This document shows, in pieces, positions 8,567-48,769 of a DNA stretch of 64,000 nucleotides. Each line of letters begins with the position of its first letter. Position 1 is the first letter of the stretch. The notes under the pieces are model-generated. The model searched no databases, was not told the origin of the DNA, and saw nothing but the letters and a program-made list of their open reading frames with translations. The stretch is from Chiloscyllium plagiosum (taxonomy: Eukaryota), in contig NC_057747.1 of the NCBI RefSeq assembly GCF_004010195.1, forward strand, positions 27,564,727 to 27,628,726, written 5' to 3'. A program made the translations under genes and the position numbers.

Positions 8567-8771
8567 GTAGATAAAAAACCCAAAAAACTGCAGATGCTGT
8601 AAATCAAAAACAAAAACAGAAGTTGCTAGAAAAGCTCAGCAGGTTTGGCACCATCTGTGAAGAGAAATCAGAGTTAACATTGGGTTGCTGGACCCAAAAT
8701 GTTATCTTTGATTTCTCTGCACAGTTGCTGCCAGATCTACTGAGCTTTTCCAGCAACTTTTGTTTTTGTTT
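8567..8771. mobile_element. Short palindromic PLE-terminus-derived insertion (degenerate, ribozyme core lost)
   Basis: Imperfect inverted arms (aacagaagttgctagaaaagctcagcagg / ctactgagcttttccagcaacttttgtt); 11-bp TSD CTGCATTAGAA at 8556-8566 and 8772-8782. Confidence 0.75.
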
Positions 8772-9139
8772 CTGCATTAGAACTAAGATTACTGCATTGG
8801 ATTATGTGAACAACTGATTTAAACATAATTTAAATTACTGCAAATACTCATAGATGTTTTAACCATCTAATAAATTATTTGATTGGTTTTAGTCTTTGCA
8901 AAAATTAAATGTCCGCAAAATGAATGTTCAAATAAATGAAAAATGCACAAAGATTTAATTGCATAACTTTGATAATCAAACAATAGTGTGTAGGAACAAA
9001 AACTGGTTATCCTGCCCATGAAGCTAGTCTGAAATTCCATTAAATGATATATAAATATAAGTTGATACTATGATTTAATTAACAAACATGGGCCTAACAA
9101 GTAACACTCACATTCTCAGAACAAATGTATATCAGAAAA

Positions 9140-14579: not shown

Positions 14580-16430
14580 ATCTTCAGGAAACGTTAAGGG
14601 GACACAGGATCAACCACGGAGGAGGAACTGAAGGAAATTCTTATTAGTCAGAGTTACAAATCACACAACACCAGGTTATAGTCCAACAGGTTTAATTGGA
14701 AGCACTAGCTTTTGGAGTGCTGCTCCGTGTACTCCACAACCACCTGATGAAGCAGCAGCACTCCGAAAGCTAGTGCTTCCAATTAAACCTGTTGGACTAT
14801 AAGCTGTGTTGTGTGATTTTTAACTTTGTACACCCAATCCAACACTGGCATCTCCAAATCCTTATTAGTCAGGAAATTGTATTGGGGAAATTGATTGGAC
14901 TAAACCCTGATTAAGTCCCCAAGACCTGATGCTCTGCATCCCAGAGTACTTAAGGAAGTGGCCCTAGAAATAGTGGACACATTGATGATCATTTTCCAGT
15001 ATTGTATAGACTATGGAAGAGTTCCAATGGACTGCAGGGTAGCTAACATAACCCTACATTTTGGAAAAAGGGGGAGAGAAAACAAGGAATTATAGGCCAG
15101 TTAACCTGACATCGGTGGTGGGGAAAATGCTGGATGTAATAATTGAGCATTAGGAAAGCGGTGACAGGATCAGTCCAAGTCAGGATGCATTCACCAAAGG
15201 GAAATCATGCTTGACAAAAATTCTAGAATTTCTTTTGAGGATGTGACCAGTAGAGTGGACGAGGGTGAATATTGTGTATCTGGACTTTCAAAAGACTTTT
15301 GACAAAGCCCCACATAAGAGATGAGTAAGTAAAATTAACGGTCAAGGTATCAAAGGTAAATGCATTGACAAGGATAGAGAACTGGATCAGTGGTGCTGGA
15401 AGAGCACAGCAATTCAGGCAGCATCAATGGTTGGCAGACAGGAAATAGAGTGTTAGAATAAATGGGTTCTTTTCAGAGTGGCAGGCAATATCGATTGGGA
15501 TACCAGAGAGTTAAGTGGTAGGACCCGAGCTGTTCACAACATACATTAACAATTTGGATGAAGGAATTAAATGCAATATTGCCAAATGTGTATACAACAC
15601 TAAGCTGGGTGGCACTTTGTGCTGGGAGGAGAATGTTAAGAGGCTGTAATGCGACTTGGACAGGCTGGGCAAGTGGGCAAATACAATATAATGTAGATCA
15701 ATGAGGTTATCCATTTTGACAGAAAACAGGTAGGCAGATTATTATCTAAATGGTGGCAGTTTAGGAAAGGGTGAGGTGCAACAAGACCTGGTGTCATGGT
15801 GGAACTGTCGCTGAAGGCTGGCATGCAGGTGCAGCAGGCAGTGAGGTAAGCTAATGGCATGCTTCCCTTCATAGCGAGAGGATTTGAGTATAGTTTTGAC
15901 TCTCAGTCTGAGAAAGGACATTGTTGTTATTGACAGAATCCAGCAAAGATTCATCTGACTGATCCCTGGATGGCAGGCCTGACATATGAAGAAAGACTGG
16001 ATCAACTAGGCTTGTACTCATTGGAATTTAGAAGAATAGGGGGCAGATCTCATAGAACCGTACAAAATCCTGATGGGACTGGACAGGCTAGGTGTGGGAA
16101 GAATGTTTGGAATGCTGGGGAAGTCCAGAACTAGGGGTCATAGTCTAAGTATAAGGAGTAAGCCATTCAGAACTGAGATGAGGAAGAATTCTTTATTCAG
16201 AAAGTTGTGAAGCTGTGAAATTCTCTACCATAGAAAGCTGTTGGGGGTACTTTGTTAGATATATTCAAGGCTGAGCTTGACATGGCCCTTGTGGCTAAAG
16301 GTATCAAGAGGTATGGAGAGAAAGCGGGAGTGGGAAACTAAATTTGCATTGTCAGTCATGATCTATTGAAAGGTGGTGCAGGCTTAAAGGGCTGAATTGG
16401 CTACTCCTGCATCTATTTTCTATGTTTCTA
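14580..16430 (+). mobile_element. CR1-type LINE, 5'-truncated, decayed RT and 3' UTR
   Basis: Recognisable LHPRVLKEVALEI, NYRPVNLTSVVGKML, GKSCLT, YLDFQKTFDK motifs with stops and frameshifts; (TTCTATGT) tail. Confidence 0.85.
14652..14860. mobile_element. Palindromic PLE-terminus insertion with hammerhead-like core (family B)
   Basis: About 70-bp inverted arms; CAC-CTGATGA-a-gcagcagcactcc-GAAA-GCTA-GTG; 12-bp TSD CTTATTAGTCAG at 14640-14651 and 14861-14872, interrupting the CR1 above. Confidence 0.85.
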
Positions 16431-24810: not shown

Positions 24811-25301
24811 CTGTGAAAAAATTTGAAGTTCCATAATACATTTAGTTTTTCCCATAATTGAAAACCATTCACTCAGCAGTAAAGTTCACCACATTAACTC
24901 TCAATAGCCACATCTCAAACCAAAGCAAACCAGTAATCATAATTTTATATTTTATTATGGGATACATCAGTGACGTGAAAAAGGTTAGCCACAAGACACA
25001 CGGGGCCAGTGAGAATGCAGATGTAGCTAATCACAGTAAATAATATGCACAATACAACTAAAAAACAGACTAATGGGGACGGACCATTGTTGGCAATGTT
25101 ACCTCAGTGCTTATATTAGCACGTTACAGGTGATTCACATCAAGTGAAACAACAATCATTAAAAATAGAACACCCAACTGTTGGACAAAAACTGAGAAGC
25201 TGCACTAAGATGCTCCGTGTCGACAAAAACTTGCCCAAGTTTAAAATACAATATTTCAGATCGTTGTTGTGGTTCTGTTCGCCGAGCTGGGAATTTGTGT
25301 T

Positions 25302-25341
25302 GCAGATGTTTCGTCCCCTGTCTAGGTGACATCCTCAGTGC
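25302..25341 (-). ncRNA. Second copy of the family-C hammerhead motif, on the USP54 sense strand
   Basis: Reverse complement reads GCA-CUGAGGA-UGUCACCUAGACAGGGGAC-GAAA-CAUC-UGC (one G>A change breaks the ACGU palindrome). Confidence 0.6.
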
Positions 25342-25548
25342 TTGGGAGCCTCCTGTGAAGCGCTTCTGTGATCTTTCCTCCGGCATTTTAGTGGTTTGAA
25401 TCTGCCGCTTTCGGTTGTCAGTTCCAGCTCTCCGTTGCAATGGTCAGTATATTGGGTCCGGTCGATGTGCTTATTGATTGAATCTGTGGATGAGTGCCAT
25501 GCCTCTCGGAATTCCCTTGTTGTTCTCTGTTTGGCTTGTCCTATAATA

Positions 25549-25686
25549 GGAGAAAGTGAGGTCTGCAGATGCTGGACATCAGAGCTGAAAATGTGTTGCT
25601 GGAAAAGCGCAGCAGGTCAGGCAGCATCCAGGGAACAGGAGAATCGACGTTTCGGGCATAAGGGCTTATGCCCGAAACGTCGATTC
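25549..25686. mobile_element. Family-A palindromic PLE-terminus insertion nested in the family-C element; runs into the gap
   Basis: Near-identical to 31562-31788 and 48010-48172; perfect 22-bp arms at 25641-25662 and 25665-25686 around a GG spacer. Confidence 0.85.
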
Positions 25687-26107
25687 NNNNNNNNNNNNNN
25701 NNNNNNNNNNNNNNNNNNNNNNNNNNNNNNNNNNNNNNNNNNNNNNNNNNNNNNNNNNNNNNNNNNNNNNNNNNNNNNNNNNNNNNNNNNNNNNNNNNNN
25801 NNNNNNNNNNNNNNNNNNNNNNNNNNNNNNNNNNNNNNNNNNNNNNNNNNNNNNNNNNNNNNNNNNNNNNNNNNNNNNNNNNNNNNNNNNNNNNNNNNNN
25901 NNNNNNNNNNNNNNNNNNNNNNNNNNNNNNNNNNNNNNNNNNNNNNNNNNNNNNNNNNNNNNNNNNNNNNNNNNNNNNNNNNNNNNNNNNNNNNNNNNNN
26001 NNNNNNNNNNNNNNNNNNNNNNNNNNNNNNNNNNNNNNNNNNNNNNNNNNNNNNNNNNNNNNNNNNNNNNNNNNNNNNNNNNNNNNNNNNNNNNNNNNNN
26101 NNNNNNN
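25687..26107. other. Assembly gap (421 N)
   Basis: Run of n characters. Confidence 1.
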
Positions 26108-26272
26108 TCATGTTGCTTGTCATCTGTGTGTGTGGCTACTAAGGATAGCTGGTTGTGTTGTTTCGTGGCTAGTTGGTGTGGCTAGCTGGAACTGACAACC
26201 GGAAGCGGTAGATTCAAACCACTACAAATGCCGGAGGAAAGGTCACAGAAGCGCTTCACAGGAGGCTCCCAA

Positions 26273-26312
26273 GCACTGAGGATGTCACCTAGACAGGGGA
26301 CGAAACGTCTGC
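26273..26312 (+). ncRNA. Minimal type-I hammerhead ribozyme motif
   Basis: GCA-CUGAGGA-U-[GUC a CCU agac AGG g GAC]-GAAA-CGUC^-UGC: core CUGANGA/GAAA/UH present, helix I GCA/UGC, helix II pairs, palindromic ACGU in place of helix III. Confidence 0.75.
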
Positions 26313-27144
26313 AACACAAATTCCCAGCTCGGCGAACAGAACCACAACAACGAGCACCCGAGCTACAAATCTTCTCACAAATTTTGAATATTTCAGATCA
26401 TTATCGGAAGACCGATGTATTTCTCGCTCTGCAACAAAAATTATTCTTAGTCACTCCAGAAAACATGCATCTTCTAATCTTCAAACATAACTTTAATGCC
26501 AAATTAGTAATGTGAGATTAAAAAATGCCCTACATTTAAGTGTTCATTTGAAGAATAATAAATCAGTCAGCAAAATATGCCATTGGTTTGACATCAAATT
26601 TCACAAATATTCAGCTGTTAACGAACTCAACAAACCAGCCAAATCACGTATGTTGATTTGGCTTCTTCAACTGTCTCAATAGAAGGCAATTTGGATAAGG
26701 AAACGTTCCCAAGCAGATAATGGGAAACAGAGTCTTCAATACGGAAAGGAAACAGGACATGAAATGTTAACATCACCTTTGACTGAACTTGAAGTTAATT
26801 TGCCAAATATTACTAACTAAAATTATGACATCAAAACACTATCAATCTTTTCAATTGAAGTCACTACCAATACAAGTATCTGTGACAACAATATGATGAT
26901 CACAAAGAACTGCAGATGCTGGAAGTCAAACAAAGATGCTGGAAAAATACAGGTCTGGCAACATCTGTAGAGAGAAAACCGTTGTTATAGATATGGATAA
27001 ATTTTCTATAACACACCTGTATTATAATAATGCTTCACTTTGGGAGTAAAGTAAAAAAGGAGGAAAAGGTATGAAGCAATGTTAAGGTTTCAAATTTGCA
27101 CAACATTTTATTGACAATTCTCACTTGTCTTAAAGCCAAAGCAG

Positions 27145-29599: not shown

Positions 29600-31561
29600 A
29601 CTGATGTCTCAGAAATACATGACTCTGCATCTTGCAGAAACAGATCAATCTACAGTACTGAAATTCACCTGTAGCAGAAGAACTATTCTAGGTTTGTGCA
29701 TTTCTAGGAAATGGAGAACAGAGAGCTTGTTAAAGCTCTCCACAAACTTTTCCATAAATATCCTCTCGCTGAAAACAAAGCTTCTCCTTTTTGTGATATT
29801 TCAATAAAAATCTTAGCCATGATCATCTCTAAATAGTCTAAGATTAAGAACTTTCTGAACGCTGACTACAAAAGGTGAGAAGCTCAGCACGTGGCCTAAG
29901 GCAGGGTGCTATCAGGCAGAACTTAGGTTGAGAATATAGTTTATAGAGTCGTTATGATAGTGCCTGATTTCACCAAATATACAGCAAGAAAATTCAACCA
30001 CATTAATCCCAGGATTTTGTCAACTGTTCATTTTATGTTCAATTGTGACAGGAACAAGGAACAAAAGAAATTTTTCTCTTTTGATTTTTGTATACAAGAG
30101 AAAGGAGACACTAAACTGATAGTCAAACTTTCCATTAGGCTTTTTAAATTGAGCACAATAATCACACATGGCTCAGTAATTTCTACATGAATACATTGTC
30201 ATGTAACAACAAGTGATCATAGAGAAATAGAGTTCACAGGAATCACCGCATTTGTCTCAGAAGACGAACACTGGAAGTCTCATACTGAACCCCTGAATGT
30301 GAAAGTGATTGCCCTTGACATTAGGGCAGTATTTGACAGTGTGGCATCAAAGCGCCCCAACAAACTTGAATTGAATGAGAATTGGGGAAAACTCTCCCAT
30401 TTTTTGGAGTCATACCGAGCATAAAGATGGTTGTCATAATTTGAAATCAATCATCTCTGTCACAAGAAGCAGTACAGGAGCTTCTCAGGATAGATATTTC
30501 TAATCAACCTGTTCAGATTTGTATGGGGCAGGTGGGAACTGAACAGAAGCCTCCTGGCCCAGAGGAAGGAACACTACTACTGTGCCACAAAGCCCCTAAT
30601 TCCTCCTAGGTCCATTTAGTTATTCAGTCATAGAGATGTACAGCACGAAAACAGACCCTTCGGTTTAATCCCATTTGCCAGACCTTGGTCCACAACCCTC
30701 TAACCCCTTCCTATTCAGATGCCTTGTAAATTTTATAATCGTACTAGCCTCCACCACTTCCAATGGCAGCTCATTCCATACAAGCATCGCCCTCTGTATG
30801 ACAAAGTTGCCCCTTAGATCCCTTTTAAATCTTACCCCTCTCACCATAAACCTACTCACCCCTCAGCCGCTTCATTCGAGACATTCCCTCTATCATAATG
30901 TTGGAAATGGGAATATTCATTGATGATTGTACCAGGCTCAGTACTATTTGCAACTTTGCTCAATTGGAAACAGCTTGTGTTCATATGTAGCAAGATCTGG
31001 ACAACACTCAGGTCTGGGTAGATAAATGGCAAGTAACATTTGTGCCATAAAAATGTTTGACAATAACTATTTCCAACAAGAGAATCTAAGTGTCACCCCT
31101 TAACAACCAATGCTATTACCATTGCTGAATCCACCATTAACAACATCCCAAGGGTTATCATTGACCAGAAGTGGAATGGTAAAGCCATATAAATAATCAG
31201 GCCACAGCAGCAAAGCAGAGGATGGAAATTCTGCAGTGAGTAACTCACCTCCTCAACTTCCCAAAGCCTGTCTACCACCAACAAGGCACAAATCAGGAAT
31301 GTGATGGAATCCTCCCAACTTACCTGGATGTGTGCAGCTCCAACACTATCAATGGCAAAGTAGCCCACTAAATTTAGCACTGCATCCATCACTGAAGCAC
31401 AGTAACAGCAAAGTATACCATTTGCAAGGTGCATTGTTCAATTCAACAACTTCCTTTGACAGCACCTTCCAAAGCCAAGGATTCTACCAACTAGACGGAT
31501 AAAGGCAATGGATGTATGAGAACACATTGCCTGCAAATGAATATTCATGCCACATATCATC

Positions 31562-31788
31562 GAGAGAAAGTGAGGGCTGCAGATGCTGGAGATCAGAGCT
31601 GAAAATGTGTTGCTGGAAAAGCGCAGCAGGTCAGGCAGCATCCAAGGAACAGGAGAATCGACGTTTCGGGCATAAGCCCTTCTTCAGGAATCCTGATTCC
31701 TGAAGAAGGGCTTATGCCCGAAACGTCGATTCTCCTGTTCCTTGGATGCTGCCTGACCTGCTGTGCTTTTCCAGCAACACATTTTCAG
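31562..31788. mobile_element. Young family-A palindromic PLE-terminus insertion with a hammerhead core in each arm
   Basis: 95-bp arms at 31598-31692 and 31695-31789 with one mismatch and a 2-nt spacer; 16-bp TSD CATGCCACATATCATC at 31546-31561 and 31789-31804. Confidence 0.92.
31695..31732 (+). ncRNA. Minimal hammerhead motif (family A); mirror copy on the - strand at 31655-31692
   Basis: GAUUC-CUGAAGA-A-[GGGC uuau GCCC]-GAAA-CGUC^-GAUUC; helix I pairs 4 of 5 with a U.U mismatch (the copy at about 62085 has the fully pairing GAAU). Confidence 0.65.
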
Positions 31789-32555
31789 CATGCCACATAT
31801 CATCCTGACTTTGAACTATAATTGTAATTTCTTCACTGTCATTAGATCAAAAGTCTGGATCTTCTGTCTGAACAACACTGTGGGACTGCCTGTGCCATAT
31901 GGACCAAATCAGTTCAAGATGATGATTCACGAGCAACTTCGAGAGCAATTGGGGCTGAAGAGTAAAAGCTGGCCTGGTCAGTACAGTCTACATTCCTTAA
32001 AGTGAATAAATGAAGAAAATGTAAAATTACAAATTCACTGCTGTAACATTTCTCATACTGTTTCCAATGATGGATGGATGTGAAAATCAAGCATGTTTTA
32101 GCGTGCAATACAACAGAAAAGGTATTGACATTTTCCCAACAGTTTCTTGTCACAGAATATAATTTTGGTTCACAGGCATAGCTCACAGAACAAAATTCTG
32201 AAGTCAGTTTGCTTATGGAATTCTTCTTGTGAAATTTATTCTTGATCACAAAAAGGGTCTTAATGCCTTTAAGGAGAAAACAGTACATGTTAATTTAGCT
32301 TTTTTTCCAAAAGTTCTCAGAAAAAAGTTGAAGTGCTGTGAAATTAATTTTTTGTGTCGATCATCTCTGCTGTTTCATTTGCTCTTCACTGATTTGAAGT
32401 GGCTTTGACTGCAGTCCAGTATGGTCCCAATGACTTTTAAAGATGTAATTTAAGCAGATTGCTAAGTCAATTTTTCAATATAAAATTAATTGTTGGGTTG
32501 CCATTTTCAATTCAGATGTTTTTGTGAACGTACAATTATATCAACTAAGCATATT

Positions 32556-32809: not shown

Positions 32810-32965
32810 GATGCTTAAGATATGAAACAAAATTAGAAATTGCTGGACAAACTCAGGTATGGCAGCACCTGTTCTGAAGCAAGGTCATTGCAACCAAACA
32901 TGAACTCTGCTTTCTCTCTGCAGATGCTGCCAGACCAGAGTTTCTCCAGCAATTTCTGTTTGTGT
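32810..32965. mobile_element. Decayed palindromic PLE-terminus insertion
   Basis: agaaattgctgga ... tccagcaatttct inverted arms around a decayed ttctgaagcaaggtca core. Confidence 0.6.
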
Positions 32966-32999
32966 TGTGATTATGTTTATTGGCTGGAATTATCATAAT

Positions 33000-34607: not shown

Positions 34608-36560
34608 CATAGAACATAGAACATTACAGCGCAGTACAGGCCCTTCGGCCCTCGATGTTGCGCCGCCCTGTCATACTAATCTGAAGCGCAACCCACTGAC
34701 ATGATTCCGTGTACGTCCATTTGCCTGTCCAATGACGACTTCAATGCACTTAAACTTGGCGAATCTACTACCGATGCAGGCAAAGCATTCCATACCCTTA
34801 CTACTCTCGGAGTAAAGAAACTACCTCTGACATCTGTCTTATACTTATCGCCCTTCGCTTTAAAGTTGTGTCCCCTCGTGTTTGTCGTCCCCATACTTGG
34901 AAAAAGGCTCTCCCTGTCCACCCTATCTAACCCTCTGATTATCTTGTATGTCTCTATTAAGTCACCTCTCAACCTTCTTCTCTCTAACGAGAACAGCCTC
35001 AAGGCCCTCAGCTTTTCTTCGTAAGACATTCCTTCCATACCAGGCAACATCCTAGTAAATCTCCTCTGCACCCTTTCCAAAGCTTCCACATCCTTCTTAT
35101 AATGCAGTGACCAGGACTGTACAAAATACTCCAAGTGTGGCCGTACCAGAGCTTTGTACAGCTGCAGCATAACCTCCTGGTTCCGGCACTCAATCCCTCT
35201 ATTAATAAAGGCCAAAATACTGTATGCCTTCTTAACAACCCTGTCAATCTGGGTGGCAACTTTCAGGGATCTGTGTACATGGACACCGAGATCTGACACC
35301 AAGATGAACATGTTCCATCAGCTACAACCCTCTGTTTTCTTTCAGCAAGCCAATTCCTGATCCAAACTGCTATGTCTCCCACAATCTCATTCCTCTGCAT
35401 TTTGTATAATAGCCTACTGTGGGGAACCTTATCGAACGCCTTGCTGAAATCCATATACGCCACATCAACTGGTTTAGTTTCATCTACCTGTTTGGTCACT
35501 TTGTCAAAAAACTCAATAAGGTTCGTTAGGCACGACCTACCCTTCACAAAACTGTGCTGACTGTCCCTGATCAGATTATTCTTTTCTAGATGGTTATAAA
35601 TCCTATCTCTTATAACCTTTTCCAACACTTTACCAACAACTGAAGTGAGACTCACTGGTCTGTAATTACCAGGGTTGTCTCTACTACCCTTTTTGAACAA
35701 GGGAACATTTGCTATCCTCCATTCCTCAGGCACTATTCCTGTAGACAATGATGATTTGAAGATCAATGCCAAAGGCTCGGCAATCTCTTCCCTTGCTTCC
35801 CAGAAAATCCAAGGATAAATCCCATACGGCCCAGGGGATTTCTCTATTTTCACACTCTGCAGTATTTCTAATACCTCTTCCTTGTGAACCTCAATCTCTT
35901 CTAGTCGAGATGCAAGTATCTCTGTATCTTCCTCACCAACATCTTCATTTTCTATAGTGAACACTGTCGAAAAATATTTATTTAGTGCTTCCCCTATCTC
36001 CTCTGACACTACACACAACTTCCGACTATTATCCTTGATTGGCCTTAATTTAACTCTCGTCATTCTTTTATTCCTGACATACCTATGGAAAACCTTAGGG
36101 TTAACCCTGATCCTATCCGCCAACAACTTCTCTTGACCCCTCCTGGCTCTTCTGAGCTCTCTTTTTAGGTCTTTCCTGACTTCCTTGTAACCCTCAAGCG
36201 CCCTAACTGAGTTTTCACATTTTGTCCTAACATAAGCCTTCTTCTTCTTGACCAGGGATTCCACTTCCTTAGTAAACCACGGCTCATGCGTTCTATATTT
36301 TCCTCCCTACCTGATAGGTACATACTTATCTAGGACACACAGGAGCTTTTCCTTGAATAAGCTCCACATTTTTAATGTGCTCATCCCCTGCAGTTTCCTT
36401 CCCCATTCTACGCTTCCTAAATCTTTCCTACTTGCATCGTAATTTCCCTTCCCCCAGCTGAAACTCTTGCTTGGTGGAGTACACCTATCCCTTTCCATCA
36501 CTAAAATAAACCTGACAGAATTGTGATCGCTGTCTCCAAAGTGCTCACCATCAGTTGTGA
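34608..36560 (-). mobile_element. Relatively young CR1/HER1-type LINE, 5'-truncated, with an internal RT deletion
   Basis: Track ORFs 36307..36573, 35263..36264 (KSPGP, NYRPVSLTSVVGK, GRSCLTNLIEFF, YMDFSKAFDKVPH) and 34676..35311; (TTCTATG) tail. Confidence 0.93.
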
Positions 36561-36849
36561 TAACTCTAGCCAATAAATATAACCTTCAGAACTGCAACTC
36601 ATTCAGTTTGAGTTTTTCATTTTGACTCTAAGATGGTTGCATACTCAAACCTTCGAGTTCAATTACATCATGTGAAACATATTTTCTTGGACTAATATAC
36701 TTAGCTGCATCCACCACAAAAAAAACAAAAGTTTAAAATCATAATCTAACTCAGGTAGCGAATGTTTTGCCCTCATTCAAAAAGGGCTACAAAGAAAAAC
36801 TGGTAAGCCTAACCTCCATGGGAGGAGAGGTCTTGACATCAGGGAGATA

Positions 36850-37385
36850 GGATACCAGCCTGCAAAACCTTTCAGGCAACATCTCTGGGACACACGCACC
36901 AAACAACCCCACTATTCTTTGGCCGACTACTTCAACTCCCCCTCTCACTCCCCAAGGACATGCAAGTCTTGGGCCTCCTCCACTGCCAAATCAAAGTCAC
37001 CCGAGAACTGGAGGAAGAATGCTTCATCCTCCATCTTGGGACCCTTGAATCACATAGCATCAACATCGATTTCACTAGTTTCCAAATTTCCCCTTACCTT
37101 ACCTCATCCCGGATCCAACCCTCCAACTCCTGGCCACCTCCTTCCCACCTACCTATCATAATTACCCCTCATCTGCATCTACCTCTGGCCTCCCCCTCCC
37201 CCCCCCCCCCCCAACCTCACCCTCTAATTTATCTCTCAGTCCCCTTCCCCCTCCACATTGCTGATGAAGGGCTTGTACCTGAAACATCGACTCTCCTGCT
37301 CCTCAGAAGCTGCCTGACCCGCTGTGCTTTCTCAGCGCCACACTTTTCAACTCTGACTCTCCAGCATCTACAGTCCTCATTCTCT
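36850..37385 (+). mobile_element. Penelope-like element 3' fragment: GIY-YIG C-terminus, 3' UTR and family-A terminus
   Basis: Frameshifted FRQHLWDTRTKQPH..LADYFNSPSHS / MQVLGLLHCQIKVTRELEEECFILHLGTLESHSINIDFTSF, then CTGATGA (37261-37267)...GAAA-CATC and the family-A tail. Confidence 0.82.
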
Positions 37386-37925
37386 CTTGGATATATCTGG
37401 TCAGGACCAGGAGATTTATGCACCTTCATGCATTCTAATACGTCTAACACCTCCTCTACTGTGATATGGACTGTCCCCAAGATATCACCACTAACTTCCC
37501 CAAGTTCCAAGTCCTCATGTCTTTCTCCAAGGTAAACACAAAGGAAAAATACTCATTGAAGACCTTGCCCACCTCCTGTGGTTCCACACATACATGTCCA
37601 CTTTGGTCTTTGAGGGGTGCTATTTTCTCTCTAGTTATTCTGTTTCCTTTAATATACTTAAAGAATCTCTTTGGATTCACCCTATTCTTCTTAGCCAAAG
37701 CAATCGTGTGCCCCATTTTCACCCTCCTGATTTCCTTCTTCAGTAAACTCCTGTATTCCCTGTATATCTCCAGGGATTCTCTTGGTCCCAGCTGCCTGTA
37801 CCTGAGTCATGCCTCCTCATCGTTTTCTTATCAAGGCCTCAATATCTCATCATCTAGGTTCCCTCCTCCTGCCAACCTTGCTCTTCACCCATACAGGAAC
37901 ATACAGACCTTGAACTCTAGCGATC
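37386..37925 (-). mobile_element. CR1 ORF2 internal fragment
   Basis: Track ORFs 37456..37722 and 37229..37510 (NPKRFFKYIKG, KSPGPDQIYPR). Confidence 0.85.
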
Positions 37926-39529: not shown

Positions 39530-42500
39530 CTATGTGCTCACAAGTCGTGGTTCAAGTAAGTACCAATGACACAAGTAGAAAGAAGGACAGGGATGTAAGG
39601 CAGGATTTCAGGGAGCTAGGGTGGAAGCTGAGAGCTAGAACAAATATAGTTGTTATCTCTGGTTTGTTATCCATGCCATGTGATAGCAAGGCGAGGAACA
39701 GGGAGAGATATCAGCTGAACACGTGGCTGCAGGAATAATGCAGGAAGGAGGGTTTCAGGTACATGGATAATTAGGGCTCATTCTGGAGAAGGTGGCACCT
39801 CTCCAACAGAACGATCTTCACTTGAACCAGAGGGATACTAATATCCTGGGTGGGAAATTTGCTTGTGCTATTCGGGTGGGTTTAAACTAGCTCAGCAGAG
39901 GGATGGGAACCAGTGGTGTAGTTCCAGTGCACAGGAGGATAGGAGTAGGGAGGACAGGGACAGGCTTTCAGTCACAGGACTGTGCTGGCAGACAGCAAGC
40001 TGGTTTGAAGTGTGTAGGTGAGTTTGAAACATGGATAGGTATGGGACTTCGATATTGTGGCCATTTCGGAGACATGGATAGGGCAGGGTCAGGAATGGAT
40101 GTAGCAGGTTCCAGGGTTTAGATCTTTCATTAAGGTGGTAAAAAGAGGATGTGTGGCTTCGTTAGTCAAGGACAGTGTAATGGTGGCTGAAGGAACTTTT
40201 GACGAGGACTGGTCTCCTGAGGTGATAATGGCTGAGGTTAGAAACAGGAGAGGAGACGTCACACTGCTGGGAGTTCTTTTTTTTCATAGGGCTCCACAAA
40301 ATTCCAGGGAGGTGGAGGAGAGGATAGGGTAGGAGTGAAAGGAACCAGGGTGGTTATTATGGGGGACTTTAGCTTCCCCAACATTGACTGGAAACACTAT
40401 AAATCTAATACGTTGGATGGATCAGCTTTTGTCCAAAGTGTACAGGAGGGTTTCCTGACACAGTGTCGAAGGGCCGACAAGAGCGGAAGCCACACTGGAT
40501 CTGGTGTTTGGTAATGAACCAGGCCAGGTGTTTGATTTAGTGGTAAGTGAGCACTTTGGACAGAGTACCATAATTTGGTTACATTTAGTGATGGAAAGGG
40601 ATAGGTACATACCACAAGGCAAGAGTAAAAGACAGTGAGGGGGGGGAGCAATTGTAATGTGATTAGGCAAGACTTAGGAAGCATAGAATGGGGTAGCAAA
40701 ATGCAGGGGATAGGGATAATCAAAGTGTGGACCTGGTTTAAGGAAGTGATGTTGCATGTCCTTGATAGGTATGTCCCTGTCAGGCAGGGAGAAAGTGATA
40801 AGGTAAGGGAACTTCAGGTTTACTGAAGAAATTGTATCTCTTGTTAAGTGGAAGAGGGAGGCTTGTGATATTGAGACTAGATGGTTCAGATGAGGCAATG
40901 GAGAGAGAGTTACAGATTAGCTAGGAAGGATTTAAAGAGAGAGTTAAGACGACCAAGTAGGGGACATGAGCAGTCTTTAGCAGGTTGAATAAAGGAGGCC
41001 GTGAAAGCTTTCTATAGGTATGTGAGGAATAAAAGGATGACTGGGTAGGAATAGGGCCCATCAAAGACAGAAGTGGGAAGTTGTGTGTGGAGCGTGTGGA
41101 GATCAGAGAGATGATAAATGAATATTTCTCATCTATTTTCACTCAAAAAAAGGAGAATATTGCAGAGGGGAAGACTGAGATACGAGCTATTAGACTAGGA
41201 AGGATTGAGGTTAGTACAGAGAATGTGTTATCAATTTGAGAAGGTGTGAAAGTAGAAAAGTCCCCTGGGCTGGATGGGATTTATCAGAGGATTCTCTGGG
41301 AAGCTAGGGAGAAGATGGCAGAGCCTTTGGCCTTGATCTTTGAGTCATCATTGTCTACAGGTTTAGTACCACAGGATTGGAGGATTGCAAATGTTATGGC
41401 TTTGTTCAAGAAGGGCAGCAGAGATGACCCAGATAATTACAGACCAGTGAGTCTTACGTCTGTTGTAGGAAAAGTTTTGGAAAGGATTATATGAAATAGA
41501 ATTTATAAGCATCTAGCAAGAAACAATTTAATTGGAGATAGTCAACATGGTTTTCGTCAAGGGCAGATCATGTCTCACAAACCTCTGATTTGGAGATGCC
41601 AGTGTTGGACTGGGGTGTACAACCACAACCACCTGATGAAGGAGTGGCACTCCGAAAGCTAGTGCTTTCAATTAAACCTGTTGGACTATAACCTGGTGTT
41701 GTGTGATTTTTAACTTTGTAAACCTCATTGAGTTTTTTTGAGAAGCTGAGCAAGCATATGGGTAGGGCAGTTGACGTGGTGTACATGGACTTCAGTGAAG
41801 CCTCTGATAAGGTTCCAGATGGTAGGCTTTTGGAGAAAGTGCAGTGGCATGGGATGGAGGGTGATTTAGCAGTTTGGATTAGAAATTGGCTTTCTACAAG
41901 GCAGCAGCGAGGGATGATTGATGGAAAATATACAGCCTGGAGTCCGGTGTGCCAGAAGGATCTGTTTTGGGACCACTGCTGTTTGTCATTTTTATAAATG
42001 ACACGGATGCAGGCATAGGTGGATGGGTTAGTAAGTTTGCAGATGACACTAAAGTAGGTGGTGTGGTGGACAGTGTGGAAGAATGTTGCAGCTTACAGGG
42101 GGACTTGGATAAACTGCAAAATTGGGCTGAGGGGTGGCAAAAGGAGTTCAATGCAGATAAATGTGAGGTGATGCACTTTGGGAAGAATAACAGGAAGGCA
42201 GAATACTGGGTCAATGGAAAGATTCTTGGTAGTGTGGATGTGCAGAGAGATCTTGGTATCCATGTACACAGATCCGTGAAAGCTGCCACCCAGGTTGATA
42301 GTGCTGTTAAGAAGGCATACAATGTGTTAGGTTTTACTGGTAGAGGGATTGAGTTCCTAAGCCATGATGTCAAGCTGCAATTGTACAGAACGCTAGTGCA
42401 GCCTCACTTGGAATATTGTGTACAGTTCTGGTCGCTCCAGAAGGATGTGGAAGCATTAGAAAAAGGTAAGAGGAGATTTACCAGGACGTTGCCTGCTCTG

Positions 42501-42923
42501 GAGCAAAGGTCTTATGAGGAAAGGCTGAGGGACCTGGGTCTGTTCTCATTGGAGAGAAAGCGGCTGAGGGAATTTAATAGAGACATACAAGATGATCAGA
42601 GGATTATATAGGATGGGCAGTGAGAGTCGATTTCCTGGGATAATGACGTCGGCTTGTACGAGGGGACAAAGCTGCAAATTGAATGGTGATAGATTTAAGA
42701 GATGTCAGAGGCAGGTTCTTTACTCAGAGAGTGGCAAGGGCATGGAATGCCCTGCCTGCCAATGTAGTGAACTCAGCCACATTAGGGGTATTTAAAAAGT
42801 CTTTGGATAAGCAGATGGATGATGATGGGATAGTGTAGGGGAATGGGCTTAGATTAGCTCACAGGTCGGTGCAATATCGAGGGCCGAAGGGGCTGTTCTG
42901 CGCGATATTGTTCTATGTTCTAT
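39530..42923 (+). mobile_element. Long CR1-type LINE: ORF1 esterase-like remnant, APE endonuclease, RT and 3' end, all disrupted
   Basis: VVVQVSTNDT...VVISGLL...LNTWLQE (SGNH-type ORF1 domain), IMGDFSFPNIDW (endonuclease), PEGSVLGPLLF / SKFADDTK (RT), TTCTATGTTCTAT tail. Confidence 0.93.
41586..41719. mobile_element. Family-B PLE-terminus insertion with an intact hammerhead-like core, inside the CR1 RT
   Basis: CAC-CUGAUGA-A-[GGAGU ggc ACUCC]-GAAA-GCUA^-GUG; 7-bp TSD AAACCTC at 41579-41585 and 41720-41726; removing it restores GRSCLTNLIEFF. Confidence 0.85.
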
Positions 42924-48009: not shown

Positions 48010-48172
48010 AGGGAGAAAGTGAGGTCTGCAGATGCTGGAGATCAGAGCTGAAAATGTGTTGCTGGAAAAGCGCAGCAGGTCAGGCAGCATCCAGGGAACA
48101 GGAGAATCGACGTTTCGGGCATAAGTCCTTCTTCAGGAATCCTGGAGAAGGGCTTATGCCCGAAACGTCGAT
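48010..48172. mobile_element. Young family-A palindromic PLE-terminus insertion
   Basis: Near-identical to 31562-31788 with a shorter right arm; fold-back centre CAGGA-A-TCCTG; 12-bp TSD TCTCTGCACTCA at 47998-48009 and 48173-48184. Confidence 0.9.
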
Positions 48173-48769
48173 TCTCTGCACTCAGGGTCTAACAACGTAT
48201 ATGGAACCTTTGAAGGAGCAGGAAATCAGGCAGTTCTTTTAACTGCCCAATCAATCACTGTTCTCAAATGTTCATGCCAGCATGAACTGATTAACATCAG
48301 TCTCCAATGAAGTATCATCTGTGACATGTGACAGAGCTCCCATTTTTCTAGTTCTGGGAGCTGCTCACATCACTATGGCGTAAAATGGGGAGGGTACTCA
48401 GTCAGATGGCTCATTTCAACAAAGATGCTTATGTCCAACCAAGAATGCCCACAACATTCTTGAACATTCTGCTGTCATGGACAACGAACAAATTGGAGAT
48501 GACATGTCCACTATCACTTCAGAGATGAACATTTTGGCGAGTTGGAGGAGAGCCAAATGAAGAGCTAATTTCTACTCTCACTAGAAGGTTTTTGTTTTAT
48601 TATTCAGAGGGTTGTGAATGTTTGGAATTCTCTTGTCTGCAGGGCTACGGAAACTCAATTATTGAGTTTGTTGACAGTAGGAATGGACACGTTTCTAAGC
48701 ATTAAAAACAAAGGGATTTGGGGATAATGTGAGGAAAAAGGCATTGAAGTGTATGATCATTCATGATAC

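Follow-up and report, generated by a model that had tools for sequence, protein, structure and literature searches.

A head-to-head hammerhead palindrome in the Chiloscyllium plagiosum genome and its likely origin as a dead-end insertion of a Penelope-like element

Here we revisited a palindromic insertion in a stretch of 64,000 nucleotides from Chiloscyllium plagiosum (contig NC_057747.1), which is referred to as the window and numbered from its first base. The palindrome is almost certainly a by-product of a Penelope-like element (PLE), and we favour the reading that it is an insertion of an endonuclease (EN)-bearing PLE, likely a dead end, which likely arose through twin priming, with the capped 5' end of the element's own transcript as template. 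The structure itself is of a known kind and is ordinary for this genome, and it is the mechanistic inference that is the part worth testing. If this reading is true, the thousands of stubs in the genome would be a fossil map of the RNA start site, the cap and both reverse transcriptase (RT) start sites, and twin priming would supersede the model of antisense self-priming.

Anatomy of the locus and its hammerhead motifs

The insertion lies within an older, diverged dispersed repeat, which was its target and which spans 31390-31904 as judged by the extent of flank matches. As the earlier note had described, two arms (31598-31692 and 31695-31789) are reverse complements of each other with a single mismatch (31623, a CpG site) and are joined through the 2 nt CT (31693-31694), a centre that differs from copy to copy; a 16-bp direct repeat flanks them (31546-31561 and 31789-31804), with base 31789 common to the repeat and the right arm. 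Diverged copies of the host repeat (67-75%) span the insertion site in two of the 40 loci with flank matches (L077 and L053), and the spacing at these paralogous sites fits a single copy of the 16 bp (25 against 24 and 38 against 36 expected), which shows that the direct repeat is a true target-site duplication (TSD).

The 227-bp insert between the repeats is asymmetric, its left side being longer by 36 element bases (31562-31597, minus strand). This one-sided tail, which had been overlooked in the earlier note and which continues into the 5' part of the ORF in longer copies, is a hallmark of PLE insertions. With it, the left arm measures 131 nt (31562-31692, minus strand) and runs from an extra G and an initiator-like A through the pLTR to the end of the tail; this would be the first-strand cDNA, begun at an outer RT start site. 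The right arm (31695-31789, plus strand) has no tail and measures 94-95 nt, as would be expected of a cDNA begun at an inner RT start site. The extra G at 31695 (plus strand; mirror base 31692 on the minus strand) replaces a native C directly before the initiator-like A and is a candidate copy of the RNA cap. An assembly artefact was considered as the source of the head-to-head architecture and was rejected for the family, since raw reads of an independent RNA run contain head-to-head junctions of this PLE family (12 reads with 11 starts, one junction).

A minimal type-I hammerhead core, CUGAAGA-A-GGGC(UUAU)GCCC-GAAA-CGUC, is present on both strands (31700-31727, plus; 31687-31660, minus), as had been claimed, with GGGC/GCCC as helix II and a palindromic ACGU instead of helix III. 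The cut predicted after 31727 had been read correctly, and its counterpart on the minus strand is predicted between 31660 and 31659. Positions are given below relative to 31701, the T of TGAAG, which is 0; this places the A of ATTCC at -5 and the predicted cut directly before +27. Helix I is weak, as 31695-31699 pairs with 31728-31732 with one U-U mismatch. This mismatch is found in the commonest subfamily, unlike in a sister subfamily (L221 and L072-type copies), where GAAT after the cut site gives a perfect 4-bp helix I starting at the putative start A. The window motif contains every element of a hammerhead descriptor (CUGANGA, a bulged base, helix II, GAAA, a palindromic stub and UH), and this descriptor gave 352 distinct matches in 976 kb of loci, mostly chosen for this family, against none in the reversed sequence. 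In the search with hammerhead profiles that the earlier note had proposed, no Rfam hammerhead model matched the window locus; the only matches were to hairpin-type miRNA models below their gathering scores, and a miRNA identity was rejected on that ground. Judged by eye, the PLE families among these loci differ in the sequence of helix II (GGGC/GCCC, GAGC/GCTC, GGAGC/GCTCC and GTTACC/GGTAAT), of helix I (CAC/GTG, CCA/TGG and ATTC/GAAT) and of the palindrome (ACGT or AGCT) but keep the pairing, and changes within this family, again by eye, are mostly loop changes or CpG decay.

Minimal hammerheads reportedly cleave as dimers (Lunse et al., cited in PMC6765202). The window motif resembles the minimal PLE hammerheads described in PMC4209133 in being of type I, with a bulged base before helix II, G10.1-C11.1, a short helix I and a palindrome in place of helix III. 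It differs from them in its 4-bp helix II, in the U-U mismatch in helix I and in the distance of only 12 bp between the two motifs of the locus; the hammerhead pairs on opposite strands reported there for Schistosoma lie 100-700 bp apart.

Single arms folded no better than their shuffles (z -0.9 to +0.4), and the full hairpin has a predicted energy of about -200 kcal/mol, with a helix II probability of about 1e-15 on either strand. According to these folding predictions, the ribozyme in a read-through transcript of the window locus would be buried in the hairpin, and the antisense arm precedes the ribozyme arm in a transcript from either strand. The idea that the locus yields a ribozyme whichever strand is transcribed is thus correct for the sequence but not beyond it, as on both strands the antisense arm is transcribed before the ribozyme arm. 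For the hairpin as a built-in off switch, the predicted sequestering of the motif agrees with the proposal, but no selection is needed to explain it.

The parent element

The genome-wide copy count suggested by the earlier note gave 46,533 exact occurrences of the 23-nt core in the window's genome, where tight head-to-head pairs, whose arms are no more than 12 bases apart, number 6,352; the native upstream word CCTCATT was found in 7,927 copies. In other copies, about 215 bp of pyrimidine-rich UTR precede the arm, with a GIY-YIG endonuclease upstream of them. One gap-free stretch in L129 contains RT motifs (YIDD), the thumb, a CX4CX2C linker, GIY-YIG, the UTR and the arm; the linker reads CNRRRCKTC, which fits CX2-5CxxC between RT and EN. 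GIY-YIG lies above the Pfam cut-off in L067, where IYCILCTRCGLLYIG and downstream histidines form a CCHH motif whose two cysteines lie between GIY and YIG. Both the CCHH motif and the CX2-5CxxC linker are described as features of EN+ PLEs and of the Neptune/Nematis clades, respectively, in PMC8557442. Taken alone, the 81-aa RT piece of L129 had no Pfam match, but it aligns to P0009, in which both RVT_1 and GIY-YIG are present. On the other side, arm and tail read on into the N-terminus of an ORF in L299, L301 and L314, and the sequence downstream of the tail matches the N-terminus of a 902-aa RT/GIY-YIG protein. The pLTR is therefore present both 3' of the ORF, with the arm about 215 bp after EN, and 5' of it, in partial tandems. 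Taken together, RT and EN upstream and an ORF start downstream identify the arm, on sequence grounds, as the pLTR of a PLE of the Neptune/Nematis type. Among named proteins, those of Chiloscyllium punctatum come closest (77-84% over the EN piece). The earlier note's reading of the locus as a Penelope-like insertion that is young and carries a minimal hammerhead of type I is supported.

No intact full-length copy of this PLE was recovered gap-free, and long copies often hold assembly gaps; a search with the RT region of L132 returned other, more distant PLE families (74-81%) and no full-length young copy. Between arm and body, no clear ORF start codon was found in L314, L301 or L299, and it is possible that the ORF starts via splicing or at an unusual start. 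An ATG in hammerhead loop II opens 27 codons with a stop in the tail, and in L314 another ATG of the arm (MLPDLL...) reads through into the conserved N-terminus.

A canonical EN+ PLE insertion has been described as having an inverted pLTR, a one-sided tail of 30-40 bp and a TSD of variable length (PMC3846280, PMC8557442). The window locus shares with this unit the head-to-head inverted pLTR, a tail of 36 bp on one side, the TSD, the palindromic junction and the initiator-like word in the pLTR; unlike it, the window stub contains no ORF between the repeats, and there are thousands of such minimal stubs in the genome. Like the non-LTR retrozymes (10.64898/2026.07.22.740005), the stub is pLTR-derived, hammerhead-bearing and non-coding; these, however, are described as head-to-tail tandem arrays, whereas the window locus is a single head-to-head pair and falls outside the retrozyme definition.

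Outer and inner ends across the genome

The first 100 core matches on contig 1 correspond to 92 loci and, after four duplicates were dropped, to 88 insertions. An adjacent inverted arm is present in 44 of these and absent from 38, and the remaining six end in gaps; 40 of the 44 inverted insertions carry the tail on one side only. The outer ends were compared in a set of 57 palindromes, from which four without a detectable centre were removed. The TSD statistics that had likewise been called for show a TSD of at least 9 bp in 45 of the remaining 53 palindromes and of 13-17 bp in 37 of the 53. Among the 45 palindromes with a TSD of at least 9 bp, the tail side ends at +121 to +131 in all 45 and the other side at +87 to +90 in 34. 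Solo arms end at either outer site, which argues that each outer site is a priming site in its own right. These two ends match the two RT start sites bounding the tail of the anole element. For this Anolis Poseidon element (PAc), two internal RT start sites flanking the tail have been reported in vitro, with both DNA strands cut and extended (PMC11167929), and the family studied here would resemble it in having two internal start sites separated by the tail, as its outer ends suggest. Unlike PAc, it belongs to a different clade and has a linker zinc finger.

The inner ends were examined in a sample that needed an intact core, so that starts within the core are uncounted. Among 82 gap-free arms, 63 start at 0 to -10 and 53 at -2 to -6, and the 19 that extend upstream beyond -12 come from the 3' pLTR, as this extension indicates. 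The native word TCATTCC has an A at -5 and fits the initiator consensus, YYANWYY. Genome-wide, the base before ATTCC is G in 2,635 cases and A or T in 1,619, that is 62% G against about 28% expected from composition; G at -7 (GG junctions) was excluded from this extra-G count to avoid the GG of the partner arm. One base further upstream there is no G enrichment (17 G, 22 A and 61 C among the first 100 matches listed), and the G excess at the -5 boundary differs from that position with a Fisher p of 4e-5 when A is taken as 53% of A/T. Partnerless arms have a G before 10 of 13 starts at -5 against 4 of 37 at -1 to -4 or -6 to -8 (p 2e-5; one duplicate was dropped, and starts at -9, where there is subfamily variation, were omitted). 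G is in the majority only at -5, and many arms stop at -2 to -4, for which we assume trimming. At the window locus, both arms begin G-ATTCC.

Some of the extra G's can be read from the partner arm or equal the last base of the TSD; such overlap is expected if the G serves as microhomology, and it blurs the extra-G count. The idea that the excess stems from a subfamily whose native base at -6 is G was rejected, as the native upstream sequence with a C-to-G change was found in only one of 30 G loci, and a splice acceptor at -5 was rejected because AG is absent before the A. In L1 and SVA, an untemplated G is an accepted sign of cap copying (PMC4859970), and the extra G before the A is a candidate copy of an RNA cap, with start site and cap suggested by these genomic signatures.

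Raw reads of the independent RNA run, which are polyA single-cell reads, cover both arm strands, with little coverage of the body. Their departure from the element falls precisely at -5 in 97 loose ends, and head-to-head joints at that position are also among them; they probably stem from copies within host transcripts and carry no true RNA ends. No pile of starts or ends was seen in these reads, and a search of sequencing runs returned no run on record as RNA that contained the sequence.

In the genome, 271 copies start at the ribozyme cut site, compared with 231 at a control position 4 nt from it. The filters behind these two counts let through different proportions of copies, and after a rough correction cut-site starts are about 1.6-fold above the control and about ninefold below the -5 class. 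As they are barely above control, it is likely that the RNA templates are mostly uncut by the hammerhead, which agrees with the in vitro results for the anole element, whose RNA is the main substrate when unprocessed and for which ribozyme cutting is unneeded; the enzyme of that element is predicted to be a dimer (PMC11167929). Given the 1.6-fold excess, some cleaved templates are possible.

Formation of the palindrome and related elements in the window

Building on the family, the anatomy, the end statistics and the G excess, all of which were observed directly, the remaining steps may be envisaged as follows. Transcription would start at the A of TCATTCC (-5) and the RNA would be capped. The RNP would then nick both target strands with a stagger of about 15 bp, and each nick would prime RT within the 5' pLTR of the RNA, at one or the other of its two internal start sites. 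Each cDNA would run off the cap after 94-131 nt and thereby gain a C, and the two cDNA 3' ends would be joined by end-joining and filled in to give the palindrome. The hammerhead would be a passenger 4 nt inside the RNA start, mostly uncut in the templates and masked in a read-through transcript. The two cDNAs of L1 twin priming stem from different stretches of a single RNA, whereas here, in our model, both would copy the same 94 nt, so that a palindrome results. Two nicks, two cDNAs, an inversion and an extra G at RNA-start junctions would nevertheless be common to both processes (PMC4859970). Longer copies agree with a start in the 5' pLTR. A second forward arm follows downstream in 25 of 30 loci chosen for a tail and 5' body, and 10 of these 25 arms start at -2 to -8 right after 130-1,450 bp of 5' body and without 3' UTR. 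Such starts are expected if RT begins in the 5' pLTR and, on arriving at the end of the RNA, switches to another template; others of the second forward arms include UTR and derive from the 3' pLTR.

The published reading of PLE inversions, proposed in PMC3846280, is antisense self-priming, in which a single cDNA (or an antisense template) would fold back at the pLTR start and copy itself, after which the endonuclease would trim the tail off one end. The two arms of one insertion usually share subfamily variants (130 of 137 pairs match at the main subfamily site), the inner ends lie within 10 nt of each other in 18 of 40 one-tailed pairs, and short self-complementary words are found at many centres, all of which would suit folding back; the agreement of the arms, however, also fits one RNA used twice, two RNAs of one source, DNA-level copying or later conversion, and the arms disagree at site 37 in 15 of 141 pairs and at site 41 in 7 of 137, against 2.9% overall. 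Moreover, in 18 of the 40 one-tailed pairs the arm without a tail extends further 5' than its partner by 10 nt or more (among them L035, an internal inversion that is to be dropped, and several in which the 10 nt stem from joining through helix II), and in eight by 30 nt or more; the reverse holds in four. The two arms are truncated independently of each other. Since sequence absent from a template cannot appear in its copy, these longer tail-less arms argue against fold-back, as do the extra G in both arms of the window locus and the solo arms that end at either outer priming site. We therefore regard fold-back as rather unlikely, the evidence here favouring twin priming on sense RNA. A different proposal keeps the rest of the twin-priming model and lets DNA cleavage or processing set the -5 boundary, the GIY-YIG enzyme cutting its own intermediate at ATT. 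The anole enzyme prefers 5'-ATT-3' just past its own ORF-pLTR junction (PMC11167929), and the boundary here begins with ATT; this proposal is nonetheless improbable, as it leaves unexplained both why the G excess is confined to the base before that A and why arms start at -5 directly after 5' body.

The earlier note had seen in the palindrome a self-standing, non-autonomous unit of about 230 bp that is transcribed, processed by its hammerheads and copied whole in trans. High copy number, fixed outer ends and TSDs would be expected of such a unit, and some centres recur: GGAATCC accounts for 11 of the first 50 tight pairs listed, and the exact centre of the window locus is found in several top matches, which were picked by their likeness to the locus. 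However, a hand count of the same first 50 pairs gave 29 different centres, the same centre occurs on different subfamily backgrounds, and arm lengths form a continuum up to copies that contain RT and EN. The varied centres imply that the palindrome is rebuilt at each insertion, and its spread as a unit is unsupported. A MITE or other self-propagating unit would have one internal sequence and symmetric termini, whereas here centres vary and ends are asymmetric. The stub also lacks the upstream promoter-side sequence and any body downstream of the tail, cut-site starts are rare and the predicted hairpin buries the motif, and the proposed unit is thus largely refuted and very improbable. In shark-type genomes, thousands of perfect 190-bp hairpins are by-products of retrotransposition, and they may be mistaken for miRNA precursors, MITEs or ribozymes that work in both directions.

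That twin priming on sense RNA, inside the 5' pLTR, is how PLEs generally form inverted repeats, with the capped start as the first base of helix I, seems to us slightly better than an even proposition, and it is improbable that the hammerhead palindrome pairs two RNA 5' ends and so aligns the head-to-head join. The origin of tandem and inverted PLE structures is called undefined in PMC8557442, and in a search of freely accessible papers by title and abstract opening neither cap copying nor twin priming in PLEs was found. The end statistics yield predictions that can be tested in the existing in vitro system, namely the start site, a cap-dependent extra base, two nicks and the dispensability of ribozyme cutting.

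The window contains further PLE-related elements. A second young member of the same family (48013-48176) has a full arm with tail and a short arm of 40 nt that ends just past the cut site, with an apparent TSD, and a young palindrome of the family at 25550-25686 is joined through helix II and followed by an assembly gap. The latter is hosted by another hammerhead-bearing repeat (25260-26400), whose motifs lie head to head at 25338 (minus) and 26276 (plus). Older, decayed palindromes of a related family with similar outer ends are found at 8605-8774 and 32826-32966 (82% and 72% self-match), and 36745-37390 is the diverged 3' end of a related PLE, with a GIY-YIG C-terminal remnant, a pyrimidine-rich UTR, a hammerhead arm and a tail. 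Two fragments (34676-36306 and 41568-42611) resemble what we take to be RT ORFs of CR1/L2-type LINEs. A diverged head-to-head stub at 14649-14862 belongs to a family of unrelated sequence, with AGCT as the hammerhead palindrome and what appear to be a TSD and a tail of about 34 bp on one side; its anatomy is the same as that of the window palindrome, with a different sequence.
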